A DNA stretch of 63,045 nt from Methylacidiphilum caldifontis. GTDB lineage: Bacteria; Verrucomicrobiota; Verrucomicrobiia; Methylacidiphilales; CAMAQI01. Positions 17,394 to 40,930 of the stretch are shown piece by piece. The position numbers were made by a program, and so were the translations under genes. Below the pieces are notes generated by a model. That model was not told where the DNA came from. It worked only from the letters and a program-made list of their open reading frames with translations, and ran no database searches. How positions within the stretch are numbered: position 1 is the stretch's first letter; each line of letters opens with the position of its first letter. The DNA lies in assembly GCA_945877805.1 (NCBI GenBank), contig CAMCSM010000005.1, forward strand, positions 1 to 63,045, written 5' to 3'.

Positions 17394-17397
17394 GAAT

Positions 17398-22597: not shown

Positions 22598-24637
22598 TTA
22601 TTGAACTCCCAACGCCTTGAATACCGCATCGACGGGATCCGAATAGAAGGAAGTTTGAAATTTTGCGAAGAGTTCTCCAGGGATCGTGGGAATATCGGTC
22701 ACGCTTGCCATCGGGAGGATAATTCGTTTAGCCCCGGCATCAAATGCGACCTGTAAGGACTCCGCTAAGTTTTCGACAGGAATAATGCTCCCTCCCAAAC
22801 TCATGCTTCCGAGGACAACCATCTGCGCTTGAAGGGGTTTGTCTAAGAGTGACGAACAGAGCGCGACAAAGGTGCTGAGGGGGAGAAGGGTGGAGGCCCC
22901 GGTGTTGTGAAGCTCAACGAGATGCACGTGAAAGTCGTGATCGACCGGTTTCATCGAGACACTGACCCGTGAGGCATTCGCTTTAAAATAATCGAATCCG
23001 ACTTTGATTCCCTCTTTACCCTGACTATCAGTTCCCATGCCCGATATTTTAAGAGTGCCGTTTCCTGCGGTTCGTTGGGTTTCCAAGCGGTATAAACCGA
23101 GATGATTTGTTCCCCGGGCAATTGTATGGAGAACGCCGGGATTTAATTGTCCATCCGGGATCAAGGAGGAGCCTCCCTGCTCAGGAACATTGATGAATTT
23201 CTCTTCGTTCGTCGCTAGATTACGATAGCTAAAATGGACATCATAAAATTCCATTCCACCAATTTTCTTGAGTTGCTCTTTGACCCGGCGCCGGCATTCC
23301 AAAGCGTATTCCAGACAGCGTGCGACCGCCTCTTGATCGTATTCCCCGTGAGGATAGAGAAGCTTAAGTAGTCCGGAGGCTGTCCGTTTGACCGCGATGG
23401 TATCCCGTTGATTCAGATCCCGCCCGAGCCTGAAATATTTCTCGATCGCATCCGAGAAATTACGTTTTCTCATTTCACGGAATAACTCCGCAAGGTAATC
23501 GACAATCAATCCGAATTGATTGGTGAAAAACTCAGGCCTCATTTTCGGAATTTCCCATCCCGGGATGTAACAATGGAATCGATCAAAAAAAGCAGAATCG
23601 ATCATCGCCTCCGGGAATGGAGCGAGGAGATGGCTGGTTTTGACCATCACATCGACGGATTGATTGATGTTTCCGACAAAAACCATGGAGGCATTTGCGG
23701 AAATCGAATCACGGCCGCGGGCGAAAGAGCCGGAAGCCATGTAATCTTTCATGATCTGGACTCCATCTTTGTCTTCAAAAGTGATTCCGGCGACTTCATC
23801 AAAGGCGACGACATCCCAAAGTCCGACCAGTCCGACACGACGACTGCTCATATTATAGAAAAGATTCGCCACGGTGGTCTTGCCGCCAGAGACGAGAATG
23901 CTGTTCGGGCTGATCTCTTTGTAAATATGGCTTTTTCCCGTACCACGGGGACCGAGCTCGCACATGTTAAAATTATTTTCAACTAAAGGAATCATCCGGG
24001 CTAAGAGATGCCACTTCGCCCGTTCTGAAAAATTGACAGGTTCCATTCCGACGGATCGTAAAAGAACATCCAACCATTGCGTCTCTGTAAATGCCTTTCG
24101 GCCTGCAATGAGGACTTCCAGATCGAGATTGGGCATTTGAATCGGCTTCAGCTCCTCAATGATAAACGGAGAGCCCTTCTGCCCCTCCTCATAAAAATAG
24201 CGGAGGGTCACAATGCTCCAGATTCCTCCGACAAGAAGCTTCTCATACATTTGAATATAAGTGGTCGGAACATCGACTCCCTTAATTCCTAAATTGGAGA
24301 GAAGGGCCTCATAAATATCCCGCTTCTCATTGAGTTTGACTGTGATTTTGTCAATGATCTTGAGACTTCCCCGCTCACGGACAATCGATTTCACTTTCTC
24401 CGCTTCATCGGGACGAACATAATTTTCGGAGAGAATTTTCTTAACGGTGACGAGCCCTTGTTCAATCACTTCCGGATCGCTGGAGGCACAATGCATTCCG
24501 AGGAGATATTCGAGGACGAAAACGGGGACATTCGCTCCTTCCTTTATCAACTTGGTCAGGTCTTTCCGAACCACTTTCCCGGGAAAATGCTGATTCAAGA
24601 GATCATCAATCGTCTTATCTGTCACATTCGTTTCCAT
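22598..24637 (-). CDS. brxL: BREX Lon-like protease BrxL
   Basis: N-terminus 'LLNQHFPGKVVRKDLTKLIKEGANVPVFVLEYLLGM', Walker A 'GPRGTGKSH', Lon-protease-like C-terminus. It is the last gene of the brx order. Confidence 0.9.
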   Translation of the reverse strand: METNVTDKTIDDLLNQHFPGKVVRKDLTKLIKEGANVPVFVLEYLLGMHCASSDPEVIEQGLVTVKKILSENYVRPDEAEKVKSIVRERGSLKIIDKITVKLNEKRDIYEALLSNLGIKGVDVPTTYIQMYEKLLVGGIWSIVTLRYFYEEGQKGSPFIIEELKPIQMPNLDLEVLIAGRKAFTETQWLDVLLRSVGMEPVNFSERAKWHLLARMIPLVENNFNMCELGPRGTGKSHIYKEISPNSILVSGGKTTVANLFYNMSSRRVGLVGLWDVVAFDEVAGITFEDKDGVQIMKDYMASGSFARGRDSISANASMVFVGNINQSVDVMVKTSHLLAPFPEAMIDSAFFDRFHCYIPGWEIPKMRPEFFTNQFGLIVDYLAELFREMRKRNFSDAIEKYFRLGRDLNQRDTIAVKRTASGLLKLLYPHGEYDQEAVARCLEYALECRRRVKEQLKKIGGMEFYDVHFSYRNLATNEEKFINVPEQGGSSLIPDGQLNPGVLHTIARGTNHLGLYRLETQRTAGNGTLKISGMGTDSQGKEGIKVGFDYFKANASRVSVSMKPVDHDFHVHLVELHNTGASTLLPLSTFVALCSSLLDKPLQAQMVVLGSMSLGGSIIPVENLAESLQVAFDAGAKRIILPMASVTDIPTIPGELFAKFQTSFYSDPVDAVFKALGVQ

Positions 24638-24640
24638 AAA

Positions 24641-27253
24641 TTAAAAATCCTCGTTAATCGCCCGGTCGATCGTCACTTTGACGCTGGTTTGTTCGATTCC
24701 CGTGTTAAGATCCCGCGCCACCAGACGGAATTCTTTTTTTGGGTCGAATGTCTGACTGACCAAACTGAGCCAAACACTCTTCTTTCTCTCCTCCATCGTG
24801 CCCGATTCGGAATCAAAAGTCACTTTTTGAATATCTGAGACTGGAAGTTCCCCATCGCTCAAAAAAATCTCCAGCGAGACTGGTTTCAGTCGATCTCCCA
24901 CGGGTTCGGTTTGAAGGAATTCAAAGCGATGACGGGAGGTCGTGATGATGTGCCGGTTTCCAAGAATCTGGACATCGACCGGTTTGATTTTAGTTAAGGC
25001 CAGTCCTTTCCCTTTGATTTGTCTCACCGTGACAACCGGGATCACGATCTCCTGGGGCATCAGGCCTCCATGAAAGTAGCGGGCGCCCCCGACAAAGTGA
25101 AAGAGATTGACCCCTTTCGGAATCCAAAATTCGACATTCCCTTCGGCCTTAGCCGTTTCTTTTGTCGATCCCTTCCACGCCTTTTCGTAGGGAGGAAGAT
25201 TCGTTCCCAAGAGATACCGTTTTTTAGCGAGAATCGTTCCTTGGGGTTTTTCTTCAATTTTACTCTTTTCATGTTCCTCGGGATATTTCTCCTGAAAGAG
25301 GAATCCATGGTCCGCCGTAATTAAAATATAAGTGCCGTTGAGATTATCGATGATGTAGCGGACGAGCGAGGCAAGCTCCTCGATCGCCTTCCCTGTCGCC
25401 AGGAAAGTCTCCCCTTCGGTGCTGGCTGAATCGCCGCTCGCATCGACTCGATTGTGATAGATGTAAATCAATCGATGTCCTTCAACCATTTCCCGCCCCT
25501 TGGCCTTATTGGCTGCCAGAAGATCATCCGCCTTAAAGGCGATCCCCTCGTGTTTGGCGAGTATTTGTCTTCGCTGCTCGGTACTCCCCGTCGCCATTCC
25601 ATCGACGTGAACCTCCCCCTGGGCGGTGTATTCAAGTGTTTGATGTGGTAAGAGCGAGGCCATCCCTAATGCGGTATAGGAGGGGAGAACACCAAGCATG
25701 GAGCTCAGGTCCGATTGATATCGGTATTTTCCCGCGAGTTCCCGATGGAGTTCTTCTGCCGCTTCATAGCGGAAGCCATCGCTGATAATGACAAAGACCT
25801 TCCGCTTTTCGGCTTCCGCCAAACGGGGGGCTGCATGGCGCTCGTAGAAATCGTATTGATTCGGAACATCCCGGACTCTCCAATCCTGAAAGAAACGTTC
25901 TCCTCCTGCTTCCACCATTTTGCTCCATTGCAGGGCGATCTTCGGAATAAATCCGCACGAATAGCACTCTTCGATCTTCCCTCTTAAGTTCTTGAGCAAT
26001 TCCCATGGTTGTTTCTCCACTTCATCGGCATAACAGCAAAAGTGTCGATAGAGACGGTCTATCTTGAAATAGGTCGTTTCATAGGAACGAAAGCAGTCGG
26101 AAAGGGTTCCGGGCTCCAAAGCGGATTCCAATGTTCCACACCCTTTAAGAAATTCTTCGGCAACTTCCAGAGCGCGATAGGCGTAAAAGTAGCTCTTTCG
26201 GGGAACGAGATCGCTATCCGCGGAATCTCCATTTTGAACCCAATGCCCCATCTTACGAGCCGAGATCAATTCACCCCACGTTCCTTTTGATTCGTTGGAA
26301 ATGGCCTCTTTCACCAATGAGATCAGTCGTTTTTCAATCGCTTGAAAGGTTTGAATCTCCCTAATCTGTTCCAAAGTCAGATCATTTAGGAGAGAATTAA
26401 TGTCGATCTCCTTCTCGATCTCTCCGGACACCGTATCGTAGCTTTTTCGCTGCGTGGCGCTGTCCCTCCATTGGGAAAGGAAGGCGGTGATATCGGCGGT
26501 GCATGACTTAGGGAGGATTAGGGCTCGCAGAGAATGGGGTGGCTCTTGAAGTTTCAAGGCGAACTCTGTGACCAAGAGCCGCCTTAATAAAAGTCCAGGC
26601 TGCGTTAGGGCTTCCGGGATTCCAAAATATTTTTGGCAGAGCTTCCAAAAGGAACCATCCAGATGACATGCTTGAATCTCCTCCCAAATCACCGGGAGGC
26701 CTTCGATCCCCTTTTGTTCCTCGACTAGGAGTTGAAACAGTTGACGGGCACAGAGAAAGAAGTCCGGTTGGGTCGTTTTGAGAGCGATCGAGAGCATTTT
26801 CAGATCGAGACTCTCCGCCGTTTCATGGGGGGAGACCATCCCTTGCAGACTCTTGAGGCGGGCGGGACTTCGAAAGAAAGCCTCTCGGGCTTTCAAATGG
26901 GGCTTGAGTTGATGAGAATCCAATTTCAATTCATCAAAAATCTGGCTGATCCGGTCGGCGCTAAAAACGGCTTGGGAGGGCTTTAAATAATAGAGCCAAT
27001 CCTCCTCTGGACTCGGCTCCGGATGATTGGAATAAACCAGATATTTTCCCGCGGGATCCTCGATTTCCAAGAGGAGCTTGACCGAGAGAGAGCCGATCTC
27101 ATCCAGTTTCAATAAGCGAACTCCGGGGAGGGAGGGAATTAACTCCTTCACCTCGGCGGTGTACGATTTTTCCGGATCATACCAAAAGACAATCCGGCCA
27201 TTGACCTCAGAAAATCGTCTCTGCAACGCTTGTATTAATGCATTCTCCCCCAT
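24641..27253 (-). CDS. pglZ: BREX alkaline-phosphatase-family protein PglZ
   Basis: 'RIVFWYDPEKSY', 'VFVIISDGFRYEAAEEL', 'ILITADHGF'. ATG 27253 (MGENALIQAL) sits 1 nt after the upstream stop, while the ORF-track start 27295 overlaps it. Confidence 0.9.
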   Translation of the reverse strand: MGENALIQALQRRFSEVNGRIVFWYDPEKSYTAEVKELIPSLPGVRLLKLDEIGSLSVKLLLEIEDPAGKYLVYSNHPEPSPEEDWLYYLKPSQAVFSADRISQIFDELKLDSHQLKPHLKAREAFFRSPARLKSLQGMVSPHETAESLDLKMLSIALKTTQPDFFLCARQLFQLLVEEQKGIEGLPVIWEEIQACHLDGSFWKLCQKYFGIPEALTQPGLLLRRLLVTEFALKLQEPPHSLRALILPKSCTADITAFLSQWRDSATQRKSYDTVSGEIEKEIDINSLLNDLTLEQIREIQTFQAIEKRLISLVKEAISNESKGTWGELISARKMGHWVQNGDSADSDLVPRKSYFYAYRALEVAEEFLKGCGTLESALEPGTLSDCFRSYETTYFKIDRLYRHFCCYADEVEKQPWELLKNLRGKIEECYSCGFIPKIALQWSKMVEAGGERFFQDWRVRDVPNQYDFYERHAAPRLAEAEKRKVFVIISDGFRYEAAEELHRELAGKYRYQSDLSSMLGVLPSYTALGMASLLPHQTLEYTAQGEVHVDGMATGSTEQRRQILAKHEGIAFKADDLLAANKAKGREMVEGHRLIYIYHNRVDASGDSASTEGETFLATGKAIEELASLVRYIIDNLNGTYILITADHGFLFQEKYPEEHEKSKIEEKPQGTILAKKRYLLGTNLPPYEKAWKGSTKETAKAEGNVEFWIPKGVNLFHFVGGARYFHGGLMPQEIVIPVVTVRQIKGKGLALTKIKPVDVQILGNRHIITTSRHRFEFLQTEPVGDRLKPVSLEIFLSDGELPVSDIQKVTFDSESGTMEERKKSVWLSLVSQTFDPKKEFRLVARDLNTGIEQTSVKVTIDRAINEDF

Positions 27254-27254
27254 T

Positions 27255-27839
27255 TTATGAGGCTCCCTTTGTTTCTTGTAAAATTTGCGCACCATACGCC
27301 GTTAGTCGATACCTTTGAAGTCGACTAGTCGGCTTATCGGGAATGGTGCGCTCCACGAACTTCAGCTCGACGAGACGTTGGATTTGTTTGTTGAGCTCCC
27401 CGGAGACCGTTTGGTGACCGAGCTTTTTCGCCAAATGGATCTTTCCTTCTTCCGCTTGACCCAAAAGAACGATCAACTTTGCCGCTAACCTCGACTCTAG
27501 CCGCGACTCTAGCCGTTCATCTCCGGATTGCGGCTCTCGACGGCTGGCTTGGATGGGTAGAGAAAGCACCTTTGGATGAACCGGAAGACGGATCACGAAG
27601 GAGAGTCGATCCTCATCCGTTTCAAATCGGGGCTTCGGTGACCCGTTCTCCTTCATCGCCTTGAGGATTTTTGGGATTCCCGTGGAACGCCCCTCCGTCA
27701 GGTCGAGTTCTTTGAGGAATTCGCCAATCCGACGATTTCGGTACCGTCGGGAAACCGCTTTTCCTGCCCTCAGATCACTCATTTGAATCGATCGATCAGG
27801 GTCGTTGAGCATTTCAAGGATGTTGAGAGGGAGTGGCAT
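27255..27839 (-). pseudogene. N-terminally truncated paralogue of the AlbA_2/HATPase_c_4/wHTH regulator (C-terminal 194 aa only)
   Basis: 'SRRYRNRRIGEFLKELDLTEGRSTGIPKI' aligns with 'SQIRNPVIARVFRELDLVEQWGSGIPGI' of the 492-aa protein. Both end with '..SRLQ(R/K)YR(L/I)..'. The AlbA_2 N-domain is missing. Confidence 0.6.
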
Positions 27840-27848
27840 AGGATCACT

Positions 27849-28409
27849 TTAATGGGACATTAATTTTCTTACCCCTGAGACAAACACATTAAAACTTGCA
27901 GAACGATTACGGTCAGGGGTCATTTTTTTTGCAATCTCTGCTGCCCGAATCAATTTGGCCCGGGTTCCTGTTAACTCTTTTATCAGTTCTGAAGCATTTG
28001 TTAATTCATCAGGATTTCGTCGCATTAATCCTTTATAAGCGGAATGTCGTTTGGCATTTGGATATGCCTCCCCTACTGCATCTAGATCTCCAATAAACCA
28101 ACTTTCAAGCTCCTGACAGACGATTCGAATTAAGAACTCGGGCGAAGTTTCTGGAACTCTGGTTTTTAGCTGTTGTTTTAAGTTGGAGCAATTAGATCCA
28201 TCATTATCTCGCAAAATGATGAACCGATCATCAGGCTTCCTCCATTCTCGCATCTTTTTCGGAAACGAGGACTCTAAATCAGATTTACCTTTGTGATGGA
28301 TCAGTATCCAATGCTGAAACTCTAAAAATTCTGGGAAAAGCTTTGGAAATAACTCTCGAAGAGTTATCCCCATGGATTCCTCTTCCGTCATAAATATGAT
28401 ACGGCTCAT
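27849..28409 (-). CDS. DUF4276-type (TOPRIM-like) protein
   Basis: 'IIFMTEEES' supplies an acidic strand and 'FIILRDNDGS' a DxD, plus 'CQELESWFIGDLDA'. ATGA-type 4-nt overlap with the upstream ATPase. Confidence 0.75.
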   Translation of the reverse strand: MSRIIFMTEEESMGITLRELFPKLFPEFLEFQHWILIHHKGKSDLESSFPKKMREWRKPDDRFIILRDNDGSNCSNLKQQLKTRVPETSPEFLIRIVCQELESWFIGDLDAVGEAYPNAKRHSAYKGLMRRNPDELTNASELIKELTGTRAKLIRAAEIAKKMTPDRNRSASFNVFVSGVRKLMSH

Positions 28410-29611
28410 GTCACCAGTAATGATTTGCTGTTAAAAAGACCTTGGTTCCATAAATACCCGGGGAGATCTCCTTTCTTGTAAAGGCGAACCAAGAGAGGGT
28501 GATCGGAAGCATGATAGACAGTAGATTTGCCGTTTTCCTTTTCGAGCCAATAAATACAGTCCAGTGGCACAGAATTTAAAAAATCGGGCGAGTGAGAAGA
28601 GACAAATACCTGTCCCCCCCGCTCGGAGTATTGTAAAAATTCCTCCGCTAAAACACTCATTAACTCGGGATAAAGCTGATTTTCCGGTTCTTCAACACAA
28701 AGAATCGGATGTGGTTTTGGATCAGCCAATAAAACCAGATAAGCAAACATCTTAATCGTTCCATCGGAAACATTTTTGTCGATAAAAGGATCCACAAAAG
28801 CACCATCTTTGTATCTCATCAACAAGCGACCATCATCCGTGACAGTAACCGCAATGTCTGCGACACCAGGCACTCGCTCCAACATTTTTTTCTTAATGGA
28901 CTCGAAAATACCAGGATGTTTTTCGTATAAATAGCGAGCGGTGGAAGGGAGATTATCTCCGCTTGGTGAGAGATGGAGGGAATCTTCCTCCTCTTTGTCT
29001 CCGCGAGCACTGCTGATATGAAAGTCGGAAATATGCCAGTTCTCAATTAACTGGCGAAATGCGGAGGCGGCTTTAAACCGTTCAAATTGGCCTAAACCTT
29101 TTACGGCAAGTGTTTCAGGAGAATCCAATTTTTGAGGTTCACGCGTTAACTCAGAATCTTTTTTATCAAAATCCTCTTCGTTCGTAATCGCATAGCCTTC
29201 TCCGTTCTTAAAATCAATAAAATGGAAAGGAGATCCATGGGGTCCACGTTTATAGCGAAGGATTTCACGTTTAACGATGGGACCATTGCCTTGGTCATTT
29301 CCAATTTCAAGACGATAAGTCACCAGTCGATTGGTGCCAGCGATATCCAATCGAAACTGAATTTCGATCTCTAAATCTTCATTTTCATGACCACGACTAA
29401 GGACTTCTTTTAATCCATTGCGGCCACCTTCAATATTTAAAGCGGCCCTTACATTTTTTGCCAGGCAGTTTTTAAGGAAAGCAAATACTCTAAACAGGGT
29501 TGTTTTGCCTGTACCATTGCGCCCAACAAAAACACAATAGGGAGGAACCTCTGTAATTTCAATATCACAGAGGGCCTTAAAGTTTTTGACTCGGATCGTT
29601 TCAATATTCAT
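28406..29611 (-). CDS. ABC/AAA_15-21-type ATPase partner of DUF4276
   Basis: 'IRVKNFKAL', Walker A 'GRNGTGKTT', 'CVEEPENQLYP', 'SSHSP'. Confidence 0.8.
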   Translation of the reverse strand: MNIETIRVKNFKALCDIEITEVPPYCVFVGRNGTGKTTLFRVFAFLKNCLAKNVRAALNIEGGRNGLKEVLSRGHENEDLEIEIQFRLDIAGTNRLVTYRLEIGNDQGNGPIVKREILRYKRGPHGSPFHFIDFKNGEGYAITNEEDFDKKDSELTREPQKLDSPETLAVKGLGQFERFKAASAFRQLIENWHISDFHISSARGDKEEEDSLHLSPSGDNLPSTARYLYEKHPGIFESIKKKMLERVPGVADIAVTVTDDGRLLMRYKDGAFVDPFIDKNVSDGTIKMFAYLVLLADPKPHPILCVEEPENQLYPELMSVLAEEFLQYSERGGQVFVSSHSPDFLNSVPLDCIYWLEKENGKSTVYHASDHPLLVRLYKKGDLPGYLWNQGLFNSKSLLVT

Positions 29612-29675
29612 AAATTTTTAACCCAGAGATTAATATGATTTTCATAGCTCTTTGCACGCTCTAGACCAGTGAAAA

Positions 29676-31451: not shown

Positions 31452-31452
31452 T

Positions 31453-32688
31453 TTATCTCTTGATTCTAGAAACTTGTAGTTTTTTGAGCTTCATCATGGC
31501 AATAATATTGCTCAGACGACATAGCAGGTCGTCATAAGTCATAATATCAATCATGTTAGCATATTTTCTTCGAATAATCTCGAAGTCAAATTCCTGTTCA
31601 CTTGTAAAGTTATCGTCTCGGCCTATCAGTATTAGAGCCTTTGGATTAGTTATCTTGAGTTTGAACTTCTCCGGAAGTTCCTTTTTGTGTTTTTTATATA
31701 TTTCCTGCTCGCCTGCTTGCCCCCATTTACTCAGGTGAAATAAGTATTTTTCAGCCTGCATAATAGTACCTGACAGCTCTGCTCTTGGTGTATGATTGTC
31801 GCGGTATTTACTGCTCGAAATAATGCAATGAGAAAACGGTTTTTTAACTTCGATAATATCAATACTACCTTTGGCATCTACAAGCATTAAATCAACAAAT
31901 CTGTTTGTTGTCTTATCTAATCTTGTATAAAAATCTTTAATGCGAACGTTTTCAAGAACGGCAATATACTTTGGAAAAACAAATAGCACGAAGGCTAATA
32001 TTTTTTTTTGCCACGTTTTTTCCTCATAGCTATCAGCCTCAGTCAACATAGTACTAAGTTCATCGTGTATATATTGGAATTTTTGTAATTCATGTGCGAC
32101 AAGGACTTGGTTTGATGGGTTATTTTTTAGTGAATTTTTCTTTGCCATGTAACGATTTAACTTAGCTTCAGGATCCGACATGGTCGCAAAATAATCTTTA
32201 AGTACTCTTGATATCCGTGTCTCAGCGTAATGAGATATCTCTGTCGTTGAAGGAAAAATTTTTAGAAATCGCTCAAATTCTGCAGGATGGATTGCGTTTT
32301 CTTTTTCTCCTCCAACAATAATCGCCTCGTCGATCAATTCATCAATTTTTCTAAAAACAGAAATATTCCTTTCAGCAACAAAAAACCTTTTTGTTAATTT
32401 AATTTCCTTACTAATTAACAAGTCGTGTTTCAGTCTAAGAATGGTCTTATTTATTTTATAATATTTTCCCTCTAAAGTTCCAATTTTGAATGTATATTCT
32501 CTATCATCATTAAAATCAATTTGAACACCGTCGGAATCTAGATCCTTCTTTGTAAGAAAGAACGTGTGTAAGATCCTTATTTCTCCTGCTTTTGCTTCTA
32601 GCTCTCTATCGATCCAGTTCGGATCGGTAAATTTGAAAGGTTCATACTTAAGTAATAAATAATTTTTTTCTCTAGAGATCTCTATCAT
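31453..32688 (-). CDS. Shedu-type (SduA-like, DUF4263) PD-(D/E)xK nuclease
   Basis: 'FVDLMLVDAKGSIDIIEVKKP', 'IMQAEKYL', 'ALILIGRDD', 'IDIMTYDDLL'. This is the DUF4263 core with a variable N-terminal domain. Confidence 0.8.
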   Translation of the reverse strand: MIEISREKNYLLLKYEPFKFTDPNWIDRELEAKAGEIRILHTFFLTKKDLDSDGVQIDFNDDREYTFKIGTLEGKYYKINKTILRLKHDLLISKEIKLTKRFFVAERNISVFRKIDELIDEAIIVGGEKENAIHPAEFERFLKIFPSTTEISHYAETRISRVLKDYFATMSDPEAKLNRYMAKKNSLKNNPSNQVLVAHELQKFQYIHDELSTMLTEADSYEEKTWQKKILAFVLFVFPKYIAVLENVRIKDFYTRLDKTTNRFVDLMLVDAKGSIDIIEVKKPFSHCIISSSKYRDNHTPRAELSGTIMQAEKYLFHLSKWGQAGEQEIYKKHKKELPEKFKLKITNPKALILIGRDDNFTSEQEFDFEIIRRKYANMIDIMTYDDLLCRLSNIIAMMKLKKLQVSRIKR

Positions 32689-34634
32689 TTCCCAACCCTC
32701 CGTGCAGCTTGAAGATTTCTTTCGTTTAATGGAGGAAACTGCTTTGGCTTATTGTCTGAGTCCATGTCTTCATACTCAACAAAACAAAAAGCTCCTTTAT
32801 ATTCCTTGATGTAGGAGTTTCTCCAGATCGTTGCAGAAGTTCCAAACGCAATTCCCATAACCATATTGGCCATGTGAGCCATGCATTCAATCGTTGCATG
32901 ATCTAATAATTTTTCTCGGAGTTTTTCGTAGGATGATAAGAACATCCAGCTCTGCATGGTGACCATTCCGCTGTATCCATTTTTAAGGATCATTTCCAAT
33001 CCTCTTTCGATAAACATCGCAAAGAGATCGGATTTGCTATCAGGGAATACTTCCTTTGCCCATGTGCTCAACAATGGATTCATTCCCTTGCTCCCCATAT
33101 AAGGCGGGTTCGCGACAACCGCATCGTATTTACGGGAAAGGTATTCGGCCTGCTCGATCAATTTCAGAATACGTTCCAGTTGTTCCGAGATGAAAAGATC
33201 CTGTCCATCTTCCGCATTCCGCACCTCTGCCCACTGGCGCAATATCGGTAGTGCTTGCGTGAGGGAATCCGGAATGGTAATCAATGACCCAAAAGTTTTG
33301 GCATGGGCGAAAAGGCCGACAAGTTCCTTCAGTTCCGTTGGCAGGGGGGATTTGGTTGATGATGATGGGCGACTTCCCAGCAGTGGCTGTGCGTTGATTT
33401 CTGGAAGTAAATCCCCAGACTCGAAAGGGGAGGGGGAGGTTGGTTCTCCCAAAAGTTCTAAGTGAATTCCTCCGCTTTCTGAAAAGCAGAGGATTTTCGG
33501 GATGACTCTCCGTGTAAAAATTTGACGATCATCCTCTCGTGCTTTCATCATCAGGGCAAATCCGGCAAGCTGGGCCGCCCGTTCATCGATTTCTAGTCCA
33601 AAGAGATTTTTTTCGAGAATTAGCGTGGGAATCTCTTTTTTGAGATAGCCCCGTTCAAGATAGATTTCCCGGAAGAGATCGTAAGCTTCCACCAAGATAT
33701 GTCCGGAGCCGCAGGCGGGATCGAGGAGTGTGAGTTCTTCGGGGTTGAGGCTTTTGGGGGTGGAACAGTCCATCTCCGCCTGCACCTCGGGTGTCTGATC
33801 CCCTGGAGGAATATAATAAGTCATTTTGGCTTTTAATCCCGATTGTGGATAAGTGGCCATCCATTGAGAACCGAGGGTATTCTGCACCAGATATTGAACA
33901 ATCCACTTCGGAGTAAAAAGCTGCGTGGCAGCGGGAATATCCTCCGATTTGACCACTTTTCCGATGACCGCGTCTTTCTTTTCAGAGATATAATATTGAT
34001 AAAGCCAGCCGACAATTTCGACCTCCTGCCAATCCGAGGCATCGACTTCCCGAATCATTTTTCGAATGTTCGAATCGGTATGAAGGAGGTTTTCAGAAAG
34101 CAGGAGCTCGGTCGCTCCTCCGACAAATTCAAAGAGAAAGGGCATGGCCTCGTGAAGTTGATGACATTGCTCCAAAAGCAAATATCGATAAAGCTCCGCA
34201 TCTTTTGTTCCCTCCAACTTGAGCGAGAGAACTTTCTGCTTGTCCAATCGGGACCAGTCGAGGAGTTCCGCTTTTTCCAGAATTTCAGGGATCGATTTTT
34301 CTGGATCGGGATGACTCAAAACCCGCAGACCGTGATCGAAATAACCGTGGAGCTCCATGAATCGAATGGCGACGAGCCGATTGAACCAGGAATAGGCGGC
34401 CTCCTCCATCGACGCTTCAAATCCCTGCTTCTGAATTTTATCCTTCAGAAGACCGTAGGCATGGAGATCGGAGCGGGGAAATGGTCTCCCCTCGATCAGG
34501 ATGAATTCCCCCGACTCTTTGACCGTCGCGAATCCCTCCTTGGAAATTCCATAGAGAGATGCCTGGGCGGTGACCGCGGCGATAAAATCTTTGCGTGCCG
34601 ACTGGGCGTAGGTTTTGAGAGCGCTTTTATTCAT
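32685..34634 (-). CDS. pglX: BREX methyltransferase PglX, N-terminal half (N-domain + N6-adenine MTase core) as a separate ORF
   Basis: PglX-type N-terminus 'YSWFNRLVAIRFME', SAM motif 'LLDPACGSGHILVEAY', catalytic 'VVANPPYMG'. The stop overlaps the Shedu-like ATG (ATGA). Confidence 0.85.
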   Translation of the reverse strand: MNKSALKTYAQSARKDFIAAVTAQASLYGISKEGFATVKESGEFILIEGRPFPRSDLHAYGLLKDKIQKQGFEASMEEAAYSWFNRLVAIRFMELHGYFDHGLRVLSHPDPEKSIPEILEKAELLDWSRLDKQKVLSLKLEGTKDAELYRYLLLEQCHQLHEAMPFLFEFVGGATELLLSENLLHTDSNIRKMIREVDASDWQEVEIVGWLYQYYISEKKDAVIGKVVKSEDIPAATQLFTPKWIVQYLVQNTLGSQWMATYPQSGLKAKMTYYIPPGDQTPEVQAEMDCSTPKSLNPEELTLLDPACGSGHILVEAYDLFREIYLERGYLKKEIPTLILEKNLFGLEIDERAAQLAGFALMMKAREDDRQIFTRRVIPKILCFSESGGIHLELLGEPTSPSPFESGDLLPEINAQPLLGSRPSSSTKSPLPTELKELVGLFAHAKTFGSLITIPDSLTQALPILRQWAEVRNAEDGQDLFISEQLERILKLIEQAEYLSRKYDAVVANPPYMGSKGMNPLLSTWAKEVFPDSKSDLFAMFIERGLEMILKNGYSGMVTMQSWMFLSSYEKLREKLLDHATIECMAHMANMVMGIAFGTSATIWRNSYIKEYKGAFCFVEYEDMDSDNKPKQFPPLNERNLQAARRVGK

Positions 34635-36109
34635 GAAGATTTGAGGAATTTGATCCCCTTTTTGGAGATGCGGTATTTTTGAAGACGACTGTTCGGTTTT
34701 TCGGGGATTGTCCGCTCGATCAGTCCCTTTTCAAGGAGCGGAAGGAGATGACGTTGATAATTCAAATAAACACTGGCAAGCCCCGCGGCCTTCAGGAGAT
34801 CGATCTTGGTTTTTGGGGTGTTGGAGCAGGCCTTTAAAATCATCGCGACTTGCTCACTGACTTGCTCACTGACTTGCTCACTGACTTGCTTGTTTGACTG
34901 GGCCCGTGACTGGGCCTTTAGTCTGGATGTCTCTCCTTTTCGAGACTGCGTGCGAGAGAGAGGGAGGATTTTGGGCAACGGGACGGTGAAACGGACTCGG
35001 CCTGCGAGTTCTTCAATGATCGGGTCCTGGAGTTTTTCAGCTTTGGCCTGACGGAAGATCCCGGGGATACCGCTCCCCCATTGCTCGACGAGATCGAGTT
35101 CACGAAAGACGCGGGCGATCACCGGATTGCGGATCTGTGAAACACCTCGTTTCAGTTCTTCAACGGTCAACCCCGGCAACAATAAACCCGGGCTTTCGAC
35201 CTCGATTCGATTATCAAAAAAAGCAATGCGGGTCGGCGTCCCTCGATGAGAATAATCGGCATGCACGAGGGCATTGATGATGACTTCACGCAAGATATTG
35301 ACGGGGATACTCCAAAGATCTTTGCGACGGATCTCCGAAAAATCGGCCCCCCGCATGGCGTGTTTTTTGAGAAAGAGCATAATCGACTCCACGGCATGGG
35401 GAAGGGGATCGAGGAGATCGATATGATCAAAAATATCCGCTTTGTCATTGCCGATGAAGCGCCCGCATTGAATCCAGGCATCATCAAAATGAAGGCGCCT
35501 CTCTTTGGCATAGAGGAGAATGCCTCCCTGACTTGGAACCAGTCGGCCCTGATCCTTCACGAGGATCCGGAGACTTTGCAACATCGGCTTATCGACAGTG
35601 CGACCTTGAAAATCTTCCTGAATCGCCTTTAAATCCAAAGCATCGATATCAAGGTCGGGCATTGGCAAGGCATCGAAGCTGACGCCCGCAACACCCCGTT
35701 GTAATTCTGCGATGAGTTGGGGATCGGCCTGTCGGTTTGTCGAACCGAGGCGGACATAAGCCCCACGGTCGATTCCTTCCGCTTTGAGGAAATGGGGGCG
35801 GGTTCCACTCAGAAAAACTTCAACCACCAAGAGCGTTTTGCCCTGGACGGTCATCATCTCAATATTGGGCACCAATCGGGGTGAGATCGAATCGGCGATC
35901 AGATTCGCCAAACGCTCCTCTTCATCGAGTGGCGACTCGATCCCCAAAACTTTGCGATCATCGGTTACACCAAGTACCAGACGGCCGCCAGCGGAGTTCG
36001 CGAAAGCGACCAACGTTTTTAATAAAGGGGTGGGGGAGGATAAATTCCGCTTGAACTCAAGGGTTTTGCTCTCGGGCTCATTTAAAATTTCAGTAAAGGG
36101 ACGGTTCAT
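34631..36109 (-). CDS. AlbA_2 (Schlafen-like) + HATPase_c_4-like + C-terminal wHTH putative regulator
   Basis: 'ESKTLEFKR..LLKTLVAFANSAGGRLVLGV' is the AlbA_2 motif. 'INALVHADY' and 'WGSGIPGI' are also present. The C-terminal wHTH ends 'NSRLQKYRISKKG'. Confidence 0.8.
   Translation of the reverse strand: MNRPFTEILNEPESKTLEFKRNLSSPTPLLKTLVAFANSAGGRLVLGVTDDRKVLGIESPLDEEERLANLIADSISPRLVPNIEMMTVQGKTLLVVEVFLSGTRPHFLKAEGIDRGAYVRLGSTNRQADPQLIAELQRGVAGVSFDALPMPDLDIDALDLKAIQEDFQGRTVDKPMLQSLRILVKDQGRLVPSQGGILLYAKERRLHFDDAWIQCGRFIGNDKADIFDHIDLLDPLPHAVESIMLFLKKHAMRGADFSEIRRKDLWSIPVNILREVIINALVHADYSHRGTPTRIAFFDNRIEVESPGLLLPGLTVEELKRGVSQIRNPVIARVFRELDLVEQWGSGIPGIFRQAKAEKLQDPIIEELAGRVRFTVPLPKILPLSRTQSRKGETSRLKAQSRAQSNKQVSEQVSEQVSEQVAMILKACSNTPKTKIDLLKAAGLASVYLNYQRHLLPLLEKGLIERTIPEKPNSRLQKYRISKKGIKFLKSS
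34847..34916. repeat. In-frame 12-nt tandem repeats (gacttgctcact x3 + degenerate copy, then tgactgggcccg x~2)
   Basis: Units at 34847, 34859 and 34871, a degenerate copy at 34883, then 34895 and 34907. They encode AQSRAQSNKQVSEQVSEQVSEQV in the regulator linker. Confidence 0.9.
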
Positions 36110-36123
36110 GACTTGAAGCGGGG

Positions 36124-39100
36124 TTATTTAATCTGAATTCTTTCATTCCGAAACAGAGCCGCCTTCAGGTGAGATTGAAGGGCTTTGATGAAGTCGTCGG
36201 CCTGCTCGGGGGTTTCCAAGTAAGAACCATTCACGAGCTCGGAGGGTTTGATGACGGTTCGAACCTTCATGACGGGGGTGGAGTCCCCTTTGCCGGAGCT
36301 TGTTTTTTTCTCCTTCAAAATCCCGGAAATTTCCGCGTAAATTTTTTCCGTGAGGTTTTCGATTTTTTCCTCGGCTTGGGCAAGGTGAGCGAGGCTCTCT
36401 TGGGAGGCGATTTGCGTTCGCAGATCATTCAGAGGGGCGAGCAATGCGTCACGGTGGGGAGCGAGCGAGGCCTGGGAGGCGATCTCTTTCTCAAGGATCG
36501 CGATTCCCTTCGTGAGTTTCTCATAGACCTTCTCCCGACGGCTAAGGATCAGGGCTTGATTGACTTGTTCCACCGTTTGGATCAGTCCATTCGCCTCTTT
36601 GATGATTTCGTAGGGGGCCTTGGCTCCGAGAATCACCGCGATCCGTTTCAGCGCCTGTGAAGCCTGAGGATCTCCCATCAAGTCCTCTTGATTGAGGATA
36701 AATCGTTGATGGGCGCCCCGAAGCTCTTCCCAATTTCGTTTTTGGTTGATGTAGAAGTGTTCAATCTGATGAACGGTTTCGGAAAGATCGAGAAGATCCT
36801 TCTTTTGATCCACAAAACGTTCCAAAAATTTAAATCCTTCGGTTTCAACGGTAAACTTCTTGAGCGAGGTGAGACTCTCTTGGATTTCCGTCGCTCCCGG
36901 GTAGTTGCCGGTATCGGCCAAAGGCTTGAACTGTCCCAGTTTTGTCTCCCATTCCCGCAACCGGGACTGGGTGAATTCAAAGAGAGAATCTTCCCCTTCA
37001 GGCCCCATTTGCGAAAAGAGCTGTTGTCCGATCGATCGGGCGGACTGAAGTTTGGCTGTATCGAGAGACTTTCTTTGGACGACGGTGATCTTTTTCCAAT
37101 TCGCTTGGGCTGAAATCTTTTCGTACACCTGCGCCGGAGAAATGGGGGCTCCATTCAAGACAAACTGGATCTCTCCCAAAACGGAGAGACGGGCGAGAAG
37201 GAGAACGGTCTCCCATTCGGGCCATCCAAAGGGGCGATTTGAAAAACGTTCCGAGGCCATCTCCTCGACGATCAAGGTCTTGCTCGTTCGGACAGAAAGA
37301 TCGATGTACTGACGAACTTCCTGAAGGGCTTGGGGATTGGATTCCTCTGTCTGGGCAATGAGCGTTTGCTGTCCGATATCGTTGCTTCGAAGAATCGCCT
37401 GAATTTCCCTGAGGGGCTCGGAGAGGACCTTGCGGATATAACTCATCTTTGGGAAAGTGTTTCGGATGAGGTAATCGAGAGCCTCATCCATCCACTGAGA
37501 GGCGGAGGAGGACTTGGATTCGACCGTCGCTCCAGCGGCGAAAAATCCGGCCCGGAGGAAGAGTTGGGTGATGAGCGTTTTGATCCGGGTTTGTCGTTGC
37601 CGGTTCTCTTCCGCCAGATCTCCGAGAATTCGTTTGGTGGCGGAGGAGATGGTCCCGTCGTTTTTATTCCGAACATAGCGATCGGTTTTGAGATAAACCC
37701 GGAGTTCACGCCCTAAGGTTTCATCATCAGGAAGGCGGATAATCAGCTGTCCTCCATCGACCGAGCTTTCGAGAATGCACTTCTCATTTTTGGCATTGGC
37801 ATAGTCCTCACCTAAGGGGGTAATAACCCGGACTTGGACCGCTCCTTCGAGTCGGTTTCCAATCGGGCGGCTGTCGCAAAAGCGATTGAAAGAAAAGTCC
37901 TTGCCGCTGGCCTTGTAACGGTGCTTGCGAATTCCGCCGAGGAGGTCCTCAAAGAGAATTTCTCCCAGCTTGCGGGATTCCTCGCCTGAATCGATGGAGG
38001 TGTTTTTAATTTCCCGGCTAATATCCCGCTCTTCGTTGGTCAGAAATTGGTAGAGATCGCCATTTCGGCTGATGAGAGTCTCTTTTTCGAGTCGGATGAG
38101 ACTGGCTTCAATCTTCTTTCTCAGGAGGTGACGGTCGGTATCGACCTGATCGACACAAAGGGTGACCAAGTTATCGACCGATCCTTTGACTTCTTCGACA
38201 TAACGGATCAGGAAGAGGACCTTCAGGATATCCATATCGAAAGGTTCGAGGGATGGATTCGTCGAAGCCTGTTCGATCGTTTTTTGGACGAAGGTATCAA
38301 GAAAGTTTTCAATGGCGGGATAAAACCGGTAAAGGGGGACTAAAATTCCGACCGATTGAGCCGAGACCTCTTTGGCCGCCGATTGAAAAGCATCGAGTAA
38401 GGAGCGTTCCCCTCGGGCCAAATGAGTTCCTGCAGCGCCTACCTTACGGATCGATTCGAATATTTTTTGAATCAACTGGAATTGATAAGGGGCAAAAGGA
38501 TAATTTTTGGCGAAGTCGGCGGGATCCTTGTAAGCATGGAAGGTCATGCCGACTTGGGTAAAAGTGAGTTGGTTTTTAATGATATCGCTTTTACTGCGGT
38601 AGAGAGTTTCAAGGTCTGCGACCACGGAGGATTTTTTGGCCAGAAGGCGGGTCTGGATCACTTCATCGACATTCGCGCTTGAAAGAGAGAGACGGTTTTT
38701 CTTGAAGCGTCCCTGAATCTTCGAAAAATCGTTCATGCGGTTCGTCGTTTGTTCTCCGAGAACGGTATCGATATCCTCTTGCGATGTGACGATCAACCAA
38801 GCTCGACCTTTACAGATCGTGCCGAGATTTTCGGTGATCGTCTGTAAATCGAGCATTTTTTGAGATTGTCCGCCGATATACTGACCGACTTCATCGGCGA
38901 GGAAAATAATGCGGTGGTGGGGTCCTTTGGCGGTGAGGTAGTCATTCACCCATTTTCCGAAATTTTCGATTGTCAGAGGGAAGTTTTTCTCGGCGTTATC
39001 GAGCCACTTCGAGGCCGATTCCAGACTTTGTCCAATGGCCTCGGAAAAGGCTTGGGCAATTTCATCGCGATGGAAATCATAGGCATCGCGTTCTTCCAAC

Positions 39101-39708
39101 CACAACTTTCCGGTCGCTTTTTGAAAGGAAGCATGGAATTTATCGAGTTGCCCTTTTTCCCGTAGATTCCGCTCCATATGGGCGATATGGGGGTGATCGG
39201 GACTGAATCCCTCCATCTGATTAAAGACCCGGAGAAAGACTTCCAAAATGGCATCTCTCGATAAGGTGGCGTTGGCTTTGCTGCTGATGTTAAAAAGGAT
39301 GACATCGGTATTCGCTTTCACCGCCTGGGTCATTTCTCCGTAAAGCAGGGAATCCTGGACTTTGGATTCAAAAAAATCGATGGGCTGTTTGGTTTGACCT
39401 TCATGAGTCACGAGCTCATTCCGAAGGAGGTAGGAGAGAACCTTGATGAAGTGGGATTTACCTGAACCAAAGAATCCGGAGACCCAGACCCCCATTTGCT
39501 CGGTGATATTCGCGTCGTGAGGATTTTTGATCGCATCAAGGTAAGAGGTAAAAAATTTATTGAGATGCTTCCGGGTCTCCGTGGTAACGACAAATTCATC
39601 CAGCTCCTGCCACACGGAGGCGGAATCCTGCTGATCGGCTTTGACGACGCCGTTGATGGGACGGGAAATTTCACGAACGAATAAGTCTTGGATGGTGAGT
39701 TTGCTCAT
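36124..39708 (-). CDS. brxC: BREX P-loop ATPase BrxC/PglY
   Basis: 'GFFGSGKSHFIKVLSYLL', length 1194 aa, and position between brxB and pglX. Confidence 0.9.
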   Translation of the reverse strand: MSKLTIQDLFVREISRPINGVVKADQQDSASVWQELDEFVVTTETRKHLNKFFTSYLDAIKNPHDANITEQMGVWVSGFFGSGKSHFIKVLSYLLRNELVTHEGQTKQPIDFFESKVQDSLLYGEMTQAVKANTDVILFNISSKANATLSRDAILEVFLRVFNQMEGFSPDHPHIAHMERNLREKGQLDKFHASFQKATGKLWLEERDAYDFHRDEIAQAFSEAIGQSLESASKWLDNAEKNFPLTIENFGKWVNDYLTAKGPHHRIIFLADEVGQYIGGQSQKMLDLQTITENLGTICKGRAWLIVTSQEDIDTVLGEQTTNRMNDFSKIQGRFKKNRLSLSSANVDEVIQTRLLAKKSSVVADLETLYRSKSDIIKNQLTFTQVGMTFHAYKDPADFAKNYPFAPYQFQLIQKIFESIRKVGAAGTHLARGERSLLDAFQSAAKEVSAQSVGILVPLYRFYPAIENFLDTFVQKTIEQASTNPSLEPFDMDILKVLFLIRYVEEVKGSVDNLVTLCVDQVDTDRHLLRKKIEASLIRLEKETLISRNGDLYQFLTNEERDISREIKNTSIDSGEESRKLGEILFEDLLGGIRKHRYKASGKDFSFNRFCDSRPIGNRLEGAVQVRVITPLGEDYANAKNEKCILESSVDGGQLIIRLPDDETLGRELRVYLKTDRYVRNKNDGTISSATKRILGDLAEENRQRQTRIKTLITQLFLRAGFFAAGATVESKSSSASQWMDEALDYLIRNTFPKMSYIRKVLSEPLREIQAILRSNDIGQQTLIAQTEESNPQALQEVRQYIDLSVRTSKTLIVEEMASERFSNRPFGWPEWETVLLLARLSVLGEIQFVLNGAPISPAQVYEKISAQANWKKITVVQRKSLDTAKLQSARSIGQQLFSQMGPEGEDSLFEFTQSRLREWETKLGQFKPLADTGNYPGATEIQESLTSLKKFTVETEGFKFLERFVDQKKDLLDLSETVHQIEHFYINQKRNWEELRGAHQRFILNQEDLMGDPQASQALKRIAVILGAKAPYEIIKEANGLIQTVEQVNQALILSRREKVYEKLTKGIAILEKEIASQASLAPHRDALLAPLNDLRTQIASQESLAHLAQAEEKIENLTEKIYAEISGILKEKKTSSGKGDSTPVMKVRTVIKPSELVNGSYLETPEQADDFIKALQSHLKAALFRNERIQIK

Positions 39709-39713
39709 AATAA

Positions 39714-40286
39714 TCAGGGGATGAGGCGGAAGGCCCGGTAGTAGTTATTGCTTTCAATGGTTCCAAAGAGTTTAAGGGATTTACCGTCGTATTCCCCAGG
39801 ATAAAAAAGAATCACAGGTATTTTATCGAGATGGGAGTGGAGACTTTCAAAAAGACTATGTCCGCGGATCAAGGGATAGACGGGACCGATGCCGGTCAGA
39901 AAAACAAGGGAGGGGGAAGATTCCATGACTTTTTGAGCGATCAAAGGAGCAAGTTTGTCCTCCTTTAATCGACCTGAGAGGGCCTTGAGGAGAGCGGCAT
40001 CCCCCTCTTTTTTCTGTTTTTCGATGGATTTATCCAAAAGTCCCGCCGATTGAAGATACTCGATTGTGAACTTCCATAAATCGAGATGGAAAATCTTCAG
40101 TCCTGGGCGTTTTTTTGGGCCATGCTCCAACAGGAAAGAGAGGTGTTGGCGCATCGCCTGTTCTTCCTTGGGAGGGTAATCAAAAATATGAAAAGAGATT
40201 TCATTACCGAGACCTCGGCTCTCGAGAAAGCCATCGGAAGTGATCTTCTCTAGGATTAGATTTAAACGTTCTTGAAAAGGGGTCAT
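39714..40286 (-). CDS. brxB: BREX protein BrxB (DUF1788)
   Basis: 'ISFHIFDYPPKEEQAMRQHL', size 190 aa, 4-nt overlap with brxA. Confidence 0.85.
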   Translation of the reverse strand: MTPFQERLNLILEKITSDGFLESRGLGNEISFHIFDYPPKEEQAMRQHLSFLLEHGPKKRPGLKIFHLDLWKFTIEYLQSAGLLDKSIEKQKKEGDAALLKALSGRLKEDKLAPLIAQKVMESSPSLVFLTGIGPVYPLIRGHSLFESLHSHLDKIPVILFYPGEYDGKSLKLFGTIESNNYYRAFRLIP

Positions 40287-40930
40287 GGCGGTAAAAGGAT
40301 TGTTTTCAGGATTCCGTTCTCCTGTTTATGTTTGAGATACTCGATCAATTCCGGCTCAAATAATGGCCTCTGGAGAAGCATCTCCCGGGTATTGTTGAGA
40401 TAACCCGCCTGCTGAAGAATCTGAAAGACGCTGGAAGAGAGTCGGCGAACCGTCTCGGGGCTCCACGATAAAACCGATTCATCCCGGCCTGAGCAATCTT
40501 CGATGAAATGGTTAAAATCTTTTTTCGTAAGCTCCTTGGAGAAAGATCTTAACCGCTCTTGGAGGCAAAGTCGGATGAAGTCGGAAAGAAGTCGGCTATG
40601 CTTCATTGCACAAGCGAAGAGGGCTTGAGTTGAAAGCGAGAGAGAGCCGTCCCGAACCATAATCCAGAGGGTTCGATCCATGGTTTCAAGACGCTGCCGT
40701 AAAAGTCTCACAAGCCTTTGGGTGGTGTTTGGATTTTTGGATTTCAGCACGTTTTCCTGATAGAAAGCTTGCTTCCATCTTTCATCAGAGACCTCTTCCA
40801 AAAGCAGTCCCGCAACAATACGACTTTCGGAAACTTTCAGCGAACCGGCCGTGAGATCAGCACGATAGACGTTCGCAGACGGGGCTTTCACCACGCCTTC
40901 TTTAGTCGATAATGTTTTTGAATAGGTCAT
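40283..40930 (-). CDS. brxA: BREX protein BrxA (DUF1819)
   Basis: 'YRADLTAGSLKVSESRIVAGLLL', size 215 aa, first gene of the array. Confidence 0.85.
   Translation of the reverse strand: MTYSKTLSTKEGVVKAPSANVYRADLTAGSLKVSESRIVAGLLLEEVSDERWKQAFYQENVLKSKNPNTTQRLVRLLRQRLETMDRTLWIMVRDGSLSLSTQALFACAMKHSRLLSDFIRLCLQERLRSFSKELTKKDFNHFIEDCSGRDESVLSWSPETVRRLSSSVFQILQQAGYLNNTREMLLQRPLFEPELIEYLKHKQENGILKTILLPP

Follow-up and report, generated by a model that had tools for sequence, protein, structure and literature searches.

How could a bacteriophage exclusion (BREX) system operate when the gene for its central component, PglX, is interrupted by another complete gene? The question is raised by a stretch of DNA of 63,045 nt from Methylacidiphilum caldifontis (contig CAMCSM010000005.1; the whole stretch is called the window below, and coordinates are positions in it), in which a type-1 BREX locus occupies positions 22598-40930. 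The BREX genes lie on the minus strand with brxA at the highest coordinate, and pglX is present as two open reading frames (ORFs) separated by sduA, a gene for a Shedu nuclease. An original prediction made from the letters alone had described twelve tightly packed genes forming one operon with a nested defence island, and had placed a Shedu-like nuclease inside pglX, which is indeed where sduA was found. Our best explanation, held with a probability of roughly 0.65, is that the locus is a complete type-1 BREX with accessory genes, that PglX is split at its hinge into halves that reassemble into an active enzyme, and that the cargo serves as a second line of defence. With somewhat less assurance, we also favour the more general view that the PglX hinge is a recurrent and selectively tolerated intragenic docking site, that split PglX is a working two-subunit enzyme resembling the HsdM/HsdS of type I systems, that recognition modules and cargo are swapped as cassettes, and that 3' stumps of cargo are kept for the start signals that they carry.

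The break in pglX

Genes were assigned to families with PADLOC, Pfam and NCBIfam profiles. In the characterised BREX systems PglX is one polypeptide of ~1200 aa (PMC12707154), and a polypeptide of this kind is absent from the window, where ORFs of 649 and 591 aa with sduA between them are found instead. The first of these, the N-half (pglXN, 32685..34634), matches positions 1-648 of the 1210 positions of the PglX profile NF033452 with 725.6 bits, and the second, the C-half (pglXC, 29676..31451), matches positions 649-1210 with 715.5 bits, placing the break between profile positions 648 and 649 and leaving each half alone above the 500-bit cut-off of the NCBIfam family. When compared with single-chain enzymes, the N-half aligns with residues 1-622 of E. 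coli BrxX (1.4e-174), and the C-half aligns with residues 641-1198 of the same protein and with residues 642-1218 of Salmonella PglX (2.3e-152). In the PglX structure flexible hinge loops (residues 638-675) connect an “upper jaw” of the N-terminal and methyltransferase domains with a “lower jaw” of the target-recognition and C-terminal domains (PMC11842806). Since the two BrxX alignments bracket these loops, the break corresponds to the flexible linker between the upper and the lower jaw. Contiguous relatives have ~2-12 variable residues between the conserved segments '...NERN..GEK' and 'FxxASAxDFKKIPG', and it is within this variable stretch that the window sequence is broken.

The N-half holds the N-terminal and methyltransferase domains with the S-adenosylmethionine motif LDPACGSGHIL and the NPPY motif (ANPPYMG) intact and aligned with those of E. 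coli BrxX, and the C-half consists of a 19-aa leader followed by the target-recognition and C-terminal domains. This kind of start, a leader and then YFFRASADDFKKIPG, is common to dozens of stand-alone C-halves. Each half has a proper start, stop and Shine-Dalgarno sequence; the stop codon of pglXN overlaps the start codon of sduA (ATGA), with a GGAGG Shine-Dalgarno sequence within the last pglXN codons, and the ATG of pglXC is found 1 nt past the sduA stop. Because stops and starts overlap or nearly abut, and the Shine-Dalgarno sequence lies in the last codons of the upstream gene, translation of both sduA and the C-half is probably coupled to that of the preceding gene.

A mobile origin of the sduA insertion, as a transposon, an intron or an intein, was considered and rejected. 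Around sduA no terminal inverted repeats or target duplication were seen beyond weak AT-rich repeats at chance level, no mobility gene lies between the halves, and no Rfam family was matched in 20000-44500.

In the mechanism that we propose, the N-half would supply catalysis and the C-half would supply sequence specificity and DNA binding, the two reassembling non-covalently on DNA and with BrxB, BrxC and PglZ, much as HsdM and HsdS do. Accessory genes would be docked at three permissive positions, namely between brxC and pglX, inside pglX, and between pglX and pglZ, with the hinge as the third docking site and at the same time the breakpoint for exchange of target-recognition modules. The embedded genes would then be autonomous second-line systems that share the expression of the operon and might act, for example, when BREX is inhibited.

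Recurrence, cargo and history of the split

We looked for the split in other BREX loci, which are numbered with L below. The prevalence figures are rough, since the searches were seeded with words or patterns and genes were called on fragmentary contigs. A scan of species-representative genomes gave 17 loci, and in four of the ~15 that could be evaluated pglX is split at the same alignment column with cargo in the gap (L006, L009, L014 and L017); a metagenome scan added four of ~32 evaluable loci with a split at that column (L038, L041, L046 and L058). Among the best 120 homologs of the C-half, 76 are 559-667 aa long and without a methyltransferase Pfam domain, often on long contigs, and 54 of these 76 begin with Met, V or L and a leader of 4-32 aa, followed by a FRASA-type motif. 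The commonest such leader has 12 aa and reads MSQEQNKDMSQYFYRASA.... The order pglXN, cargo, pglXC was found in all four split C-halves whose contexts were inspected (Pantoea ananatis, Pseudomonas aeruginosa, Aeromonas veronii and the archaeon Methanocalculus). When the best 150 representatives of clusters at 50% identity from an exhaustive search were sorted, 57 were contiguous, 27 were C-half only (~20 of them with Met, leader and motif) and 62 were uninformative partial calls, which by these sequence counts would put the split share of the informative related clusters at roughly a quarter.

The closest parallel in arrangement is L009, from a metagenome-assembled genome (MAG) of Ca. Marinamargulisbacteria, where the order pglXN, sduA, pglXC, HEC-01A, HEC-01B, pglZ, brxL is the same as in the window at 29-53% amino acid identity, again with overlapping stops and starts. 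The existence of this independent MAG, as well as of isolate genomes with the same kind of split, speaks against the suspicion that the arrangement is a chimera produced in metagenomic assembly. The window appears to be a single contig that was seen once, and exact-protein look-ups for its SduA and its pglX C-half gave no other record. These facts would fit a chimera; the reading frames, however, abut or overlap precisely at every junction, and we regard such an artefact as very improbable.

The split is thus no isolated accident: breaks in this linker, filled with varied cargo, are found across many lineages, and so the hinge behaves as a third docking site. Besides SduA (the window and L009), the hinge carries an RT_UG5-nitrilase defence reverse transcriptase in L017 and L019, a 3' stump of such a gene in L018 (132 aa), L046 and L006 (last ~45 codons), the HEC-02 A and B genes in L006, and a Schlafen/AlbA_2-type gene or fragment in L014, L038, L022 and L041. 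The largest cargo seen is that of L058 (3851-10010), a 6.2-kb insert that amounts to a small defence island inside one gene; of its five ORFs one is unknown, and the others encode a protein with a Tle1-like phospholipase domain, a HATPase_c_3 protein, an AbiP2 reverse transcriptase and PDC-S13/Bro-N. In L021 (Aeromonas veronii) the stretch at 9724-10000 between the halves is a degenerate 3' end of a different pglX N-half ('GGEVVSTTA...', 'LLDGNSEAEK'), which indicates replacement of the N-half itself by recombination.

Since the reverse transcriptase-nitrilase remnants of L006, L018 and L046 match the intact genes of L017 and L019, some of the splits are old and their cargo turns over. What tends to remain of old cargo is a 3' stump immediately before the core gene that follows, presumably because the stump bears the Shine-Dalgarno sequence and the coupled start of that gene. 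A 194-aa remnant upstream of pglZ in the window (27255..27839) fits this pattern, carrying the pglZ Shine-Dalgarno sequence and coupled start.

Three further loci show other arrangements of the same genes. In the Pseudomonas aeruginosa locus L019/L020 (3406-15191), brxC and a Fic gene precede the split pglX, whose hinge holds an intact RT_UG5-nitrilase, and genes for a deaminase and a TIR protein come after it. As pglZ and brxL are absent, the locus is either a BREX in decay or a case of the split PglX module being used differently. In L037 (5805-13180) two full-length pglX genes stand in tandem within one BREX locus. In L054 (269-5798) a PglX C-half-like region, pglZ and a PglX N-half-like region follow each other on one strand at 29-40% identity, which could be a permuted split or two adjacent systems.

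To what extent the halves are maintained can be judged from pairs of split loci. L041 and L022, with hinge cargo of the same family, gave ratios of nonsynonymous to synonymous substitution rates (dN/dS) of 0.07 for the N-half and 0.13 for the C-half at a synonymous divergence (dS) of ~2, and the N-half of L018 compared with L021 also gave 0.07; in other split pairs dS was saturated, with the proportion of nonsynonymous differences (pN) far below that of synonymous ones (pS). Both halves are thus under strong purifying selection where split pairs share a hinge-cargo family. The flanking BREX core genes are kept in eight of ten evaluable split loci, the exceptions being L014 and L019/L020.

In a quite different account, the insertion of sduA would have killed pglX and the BREX would be an undecayed dead relic, with only Shedu, HEC-01 and the Schlafen-type protein still working. 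Its premise is that PglX is needed for both methylation and exclusion. Several of the points that weigh against a working split enzyme favour this account. The nearest relative of the window PglX, L023 (59% identical in the N-half and 70% in the C-half), is contiguous; sduA is compositionally unameliorated, with a GC content at third codon positions (GC3) of 0.31 against about 0.55, so that its insertion may be recent here and the intact halves may not have had time to decay, and HEC-01 is likewise foreign in composition and probably recent; L014 and L019/L020 look degraded, the latter lacking pglZ and brxL. For Salmonella PglX, the N-terminal domain could be purified alone and the C-terminal domain could not be expressed alone (Went et al.), which means that a free C-half is not trivially stable. 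The best explanation itself is further weakened in that no expression, methylation or phage data were found for any split PglX, that HEC-01 did not protect against the phages tried in its only published test (Payne et al. 2024), and that the prevalence figures have the roughness mentioned above. Opposed to the loss of function is the position of the break, which is exactly at the interdomain linker and not random, together with the signals for translation on both halves and the full length of all remaining BREX genes. Moreover, among the informative related clusters roughly one in four has the same break, the two halves show dN/dS of 0.07-0.13, and L009 keeps the identical sduA-bearing arrangement at ~46% identity. 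A dead BREX is therefore unlikely in our judgement, and we retain the split but active PglX.

A single event does not account for all of the splits. Identity matrices for the N-half and the C-half both have split and contiguous forms interleaved: L017 (split) and L001 (contiguous), for example, share 73% identity, and L019 (split) and L003 (contiguous) share 70%. An ancient split was accordingly rejected as the sole origin, and the interleaving points to repeated splitting, re-fusion or cassette exchange.

Within the window, the BREX core genes have GC3 values of 0.49-0.63, and the 492-aa Schlafen-type gene (0.57) matches them, the 194-aa remnant being at 0.54. sduA has a GC3 of 0.31 (GC 0.34) and the HEC-01 pair 0.35-0.37 (ATPase 0.37, DUF4276 partner 0.35). 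The low values extend into both pglX halves: the last 49 codons of pglXN are at 0.40 (the rest 0.525), and the first 375 codons of pglXC, the target-recognition part, are at 0.405, with the rest, the C-terminal domain, at 0.627. Hence sduA, HEC-01 and the target-recognition segment are compositionally foreign, and the low-GC tract made up of the end of pglXN, sduA and the target-recognition part of pglXC (30327..32834) is probably one acquired module, sduA having arrived together with the target-recognition segment.

That segment is 65-87% identical to those of L032, L013 and L025, whose N-halves are only 30-60% identical to that of the window, and L005 shows the reverse, a good match to the N-half and the C-terminal domain and a poor one to the recognition segment. 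This mosaic of identities indicates that recognition modules have been exchanged horizontally with a breakpoint at the hinge.

Accessory genes and expression of the locus

The twelve minus-strand ORFs of the original prediction were all recovered in the ORF listing at 22598-40930, and the gaps recomputed from their coordinates, -4, +5, +14, -4, -4, +1, +64, -4, +9, +1 and +3 nt, agree with those given there. None of the six type-1 BREX genes is missing, their order is canonical, and PADLOC, Pfam and NCBIfam match each at full length when the two pglX ORFs are taken together, with accessory defence genes interleaved on the same strand (PADLOC and Pfam), both as predicted. Six extra ORFs had been counted; five are extra genes, the sixth arising because pglX is two ORFs.

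The operon begins with brxA (40283..40930; PADLOC BrxA 1.5e-59, Pfam PF08849 3.2e-48) and brxB (39714..40286; PADLOC BrxB 1.1e-65, Pfam PF08747), whose start overlaps the brxA stop by 4 nt, followed by a full-length gene for the BrxC/PglY ATPase, brxC (36124..39708; PADLOC PDLC02471 with E = 0, residues 5-1194 on profile positions 2-1190, and three BrxC Pfam domains). At its other end are pglZ of type A (24641..27253, 870 aa; TIGR02687 2.4e-237, PADLOC PglZ 7.1e-259) and brxL (22598..24637, 679 aa; TIGR02653 1149 bits, PADLOC BrxL with E = 0). We place the pglZ start at the ATG at 27253, 1 base past the preceding stop and downstream of the start at 27295 in the mechanical ORF list, because an AAGGGAG Shine-Dalgarno sequence lies upstream of it and the PADLOC PglZ profile starts at residue 16 of the longer ORF. 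The nearest relatives of this BREX are found in Desulfobacteraceae-type MAGs and metagenomes, and no near-identical DNA was found in complete E. coli genomes or plasmids.

Between brxC and pglX lies the 492-aa gene (34631..36109) with Schlafen/AlbA_2, HATPase_c_4 and winged-helix domains (Pfam PF04326, PF13749 and PF21247), and homologs 67-75% identical to it occupy the pglX hinge of L014 and L038. It had been predicted as an AlbA_2-type regulator. The AlbA_2 domain stands, and it is the regulator label that is doubtful, since the same architecture, a Schlafen (SLFN) domain with a minimal histidine-kinase-like ATPase and a winged helix-turn-helix (wHTH), is treated as a Schlafen-family RNase effector common in BREX loci (PMC12839542). 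The regulator remnant predicted between pglX and pglZ proved to be the 194-aa ORF described above, a truncated second gene of the AlbA_2 family that keeps only the C-terminal part of HATPase_c_4 (partial PF13749, profile positions 26-87 of 89) and the wHTH (PF21247). With residues 327-492 of the 492-aa protein it shares 29% identity, and with a 189-aa ORF in L031 it shares 51%.

The gene in the hinge, sduA (31453..32688, 411 aa), matches PADLOC SduA PDLC00388 end to end (4.5e-159) and has the SduA_C/DUF4263 domain (PF14082, 126.8 bits with a cut-off of 27). By sequence homology alone its product has the same length as the SduA of E. coli Shedu (PDB 8PS4/8PS5), aligns with it at 1.5e-94 (8PS4) and shares the PD-(D/E)xK motif D...DIIEVKKP, whereas its location in the pglX hinge and a GC content much lower than that of its neighbours set the window gene apart. 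Relatives of SduA that are ~60% identical are found on an integrative element and in a Tn7-like context, both without BREX, and also, in a BREX whose PglX is contiguous, at the site between pglX and pglZ. Shedu can thus occur alone, and an obligate partnership of SduA and PglX is rejected on the basis of these relatives outside BREX. A DUF1016 nuclease is co-embedded with SduA in the BREX of L062-L064.

Downstream of pglXC, a gene for an ABC ATPase (28406..29611, 401 aa; PADLOC PDLC04144 8e-181, Pfam AAA_21 and AAA_15) is followed with a 4-nt overlap by a DUF4276 gene (27849..28409, 186 aa; PADLOC PDLC04143 2.6e-45, Pfam PF14103). This is the pair that had been predicted between pglX and pglZ, and PADLOC identifies it as HEC-01, described as an ABC ATPase with a TOPRIM-like protein, HEC-01B being the TOPRIM-like component (Payne et al. 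2024); as expected for HEC-01, the pair is embedded in BREX. We rejected an identity with PARIS, as AriA matched at only 1.3e-29 and 4.7e-23 and the partner matches no AriB model.

The presence of both SduA and HEC-01 could be read in another way, namely that one or both are integrated effector arms of BREX, which would become active through the BREX complex or when BREX is inhibited, on the model of PrrC and EcoprrI. PrrC is held inactive by EcoprrI until restriction is inhibited, a triggering by Ocr-type proteins has been proposed for embedded ABC-ATPase systems (Payne et al.; PMC12839542), and the pairing of sduA in pglX with HEC-01 after pglX is seen again in the distant L009. Such a dependence is difficult to reconcile with the three settings given above for the close SduA relatives whose contexts were inspected, or with a hinge that accepts unrelated cargo. 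E. coli SduA was solved as a single protein (PDB 8PS4), and Shedu is described as a single-gene immune system (Gu et al.). We find integrated effector arms improbable, even more so than a dead BREX, and prefer to see the cargo as an autonomous second line.

The tight packing had been taken to leave essentially no room for independent promoters or terminators except possibly in the 64-nt spacer from pglXC to the HEC-01 ATPase gene (29612..29675), the only sizeable gap, and thus to indicate co-transcription. Judged on the DNA sequence, one transcript cannot be read from gene spacing. In the pEFER and Salmonella BREX the main start sites are upstream of both brxA and pglZ, with a terminator inside brxC that is read through (PMC12707154), and since start sites are known upstream of pglZ, internal BREX promoters sit within coding sequence. 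We therefore also consider that the twelve genes are not one transcript, that internal promoters drive pglZ-brxL and perhaps the embedded modules, and that the layers are semi-independent. This possibility is compatible with the split but active PglX and competes only with the claim of a single polycistron. Along with the published start sites and the read-through terminator, it draws on several promoter-like hexamer pairs on the coding strand (30895-30718) in the AT-rich tract of sduA and the target-recognition part. A consensus scan gave 18 promoter-like sites with 20.5 expected and 25 terminator-like sites with 25.9 expected from shuffled sequence, using a consensus that may not be that of the host; this lack of enrichment lends internal promoters no support and, the counts being those of chance, is uninformative as to a single polycistron. 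Nine of the eleven junctions overlap or have 5 nt or less, which fits translational coupling and speaks against semi-independent layers. We consider the matter evenly balanced.

The same scan scored no promoter-like or terminator-like site in the 64-nt spacer. The most likely place for the main promoter is the 311-nt region upstream of brxA (40931..41241), where no sigma-70-like match was found on the minus strand, with the same reservation about the consensus, and no gene for a brxR-type WYL regulator was found upstream of brxA. Two small ORFs are present upstream of brxA, at 40999-41229 on the plus strand (76 aa) and at 41020-41202 on the minus strand (60 aa).

The BREX is itself part of a larger defence island. 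The next gene upstream of brxA (41242-43392, minus strand) encodes a 716-aa UvrD-like helicase with an N-terminal region of ~200 aa without Pfam match, and further on this side, at 44478-45931 and 46162-47331 on the plus strand, are an AbiEi/AbiEii toxin-antitoxin pair and a DUF1016/YhcG PD-(D/E)xK nuclease. Downstream of the BREX (9524-19481, minus strand) are genes for a 1968-aa YprA-type helicase (DEAD, Helicase_C and MrfA-Zn-binding domains) with a C-terminal S24 peptidase domain, an RloB and AAA_21 pair, a GGACT-domain protein and an AAA ATPase. Convergent to brxL is a PDC-S11/DUF4268 gene (21463-22563, plus strand), a homolog of which, 50% identical, adjoins brxA in two BREX loci (L026, 1272-1898; L051, 2237-2863), suggesting that it is a recurrent BREX neighbour.

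Split PglX among known systems

Defence genes are already known to be nested in BREX, DISARM, type I restriction-modification (RM) and Hma operons, and such nesting has served discovery as 'guilt-by-embedding' (Payne et al. 2024), 87 Shedu genes are known inside BREX loci (Gu et al. 2023), and PARIS lies between pglX and pglZ in the Salmonella BREX (Went et al. 2024). The 'auxiliary and backup effectors' of BREX listed in a later survey include Shedu-type nucleases, pairs of an OLD-type ABC ATPase and a TOPRIM protein (at least 1242 taxa) and Schlafen-RNase-HK-wHTH proteins (at least 1017 taxa), where HK stands for histidine kinase (NAR 2026, PMC12839542). The headline of the original prediction, a defence island nested in one operon, is then a further case of an already published pattern, well illustrated by this BREX with its Shedu gene, HEC-01 pair and Schlafen-type gene. 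What is unusual in the locus is the split of pglX.

With the BREX of Salmonella D23580 (PARIS between pglX and pglZ) and of E. fergusonii pEFER (BrxU), the window shares the six core genes in the same order and accessory defence genes on the same strand, and with the former also an ABC-ATPase/TOPRIM-type pair between pglX and pglZ. It differs from them in that its pair is HEC-01 and not PARIS, in that it has three embedded modules and a remnant, and in that one module is inside pglX. The general phenomenon of embedding and the Shedu, OLD-type ABC ATPase with TOPRIM and Schlafen-HK-wHTH classes are common ground with Payne 2024, PMC12839542 and Gu, the texts of which, figures and supplements aside, are without a split PglX or a hinge insertion site: the word 'split' is absent from two of the three, 'pglX' is absent from Payne and Gu, and in PMC12839542 'hinge' and related words are unrelated to PglX. 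No description of a split PglX, or of the hinge as an insertion site, was found in the searchable literature, with subscription papers, figures and supplements outside the search. At the same time PADLOC holds two half-length PglX models, PDLC02516 (593 positions) and PDLC02525 (607 positions), and NCBI names both halves 'PglX', from which it appears that the data on the split are public and apparently undiscussed.

The nearest functional analogy is with type I RM, where the methyltransferase (HsdM) and the target recognition (HsdS) are likewise on separate polypeptides and recognition modules are recombined. The analogy has its limits, as the split halves are homologous to BREX PglX and not to HsdM and HsdS, there is no HsdR, and the dependence is on BrxB, BrxC, PglZ and BrxL. 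Two-subunit organisation is also found in BcgI and other type IIB enzymes.

PglX is central to BREX and gives it its specificity, and in current reviews its recognition domain is regarded as integral to one protein; one from 2025 states that, in contrast to type I systems, the methyltransferase of BREX contains the recognition domain as an integral part (PMC12707154). The split-PglX loci are exceptions to this statement. As both halves pass the cut-off as PglX, defence-finding tools could miscount such loci, or could discard them where the halves are taken for pseudogenes. If the hinge is what we take it to be, it would be a third, intragenic site for the discovery of defence genes through 'guilt-by-embedding'. 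A natural two-piece PglX, if true, would make the catalytic and the specificity subunit separately available to biochemistry and to the re-targeting of BREX, and it would account for the swapping of recognition modules from one system to another.

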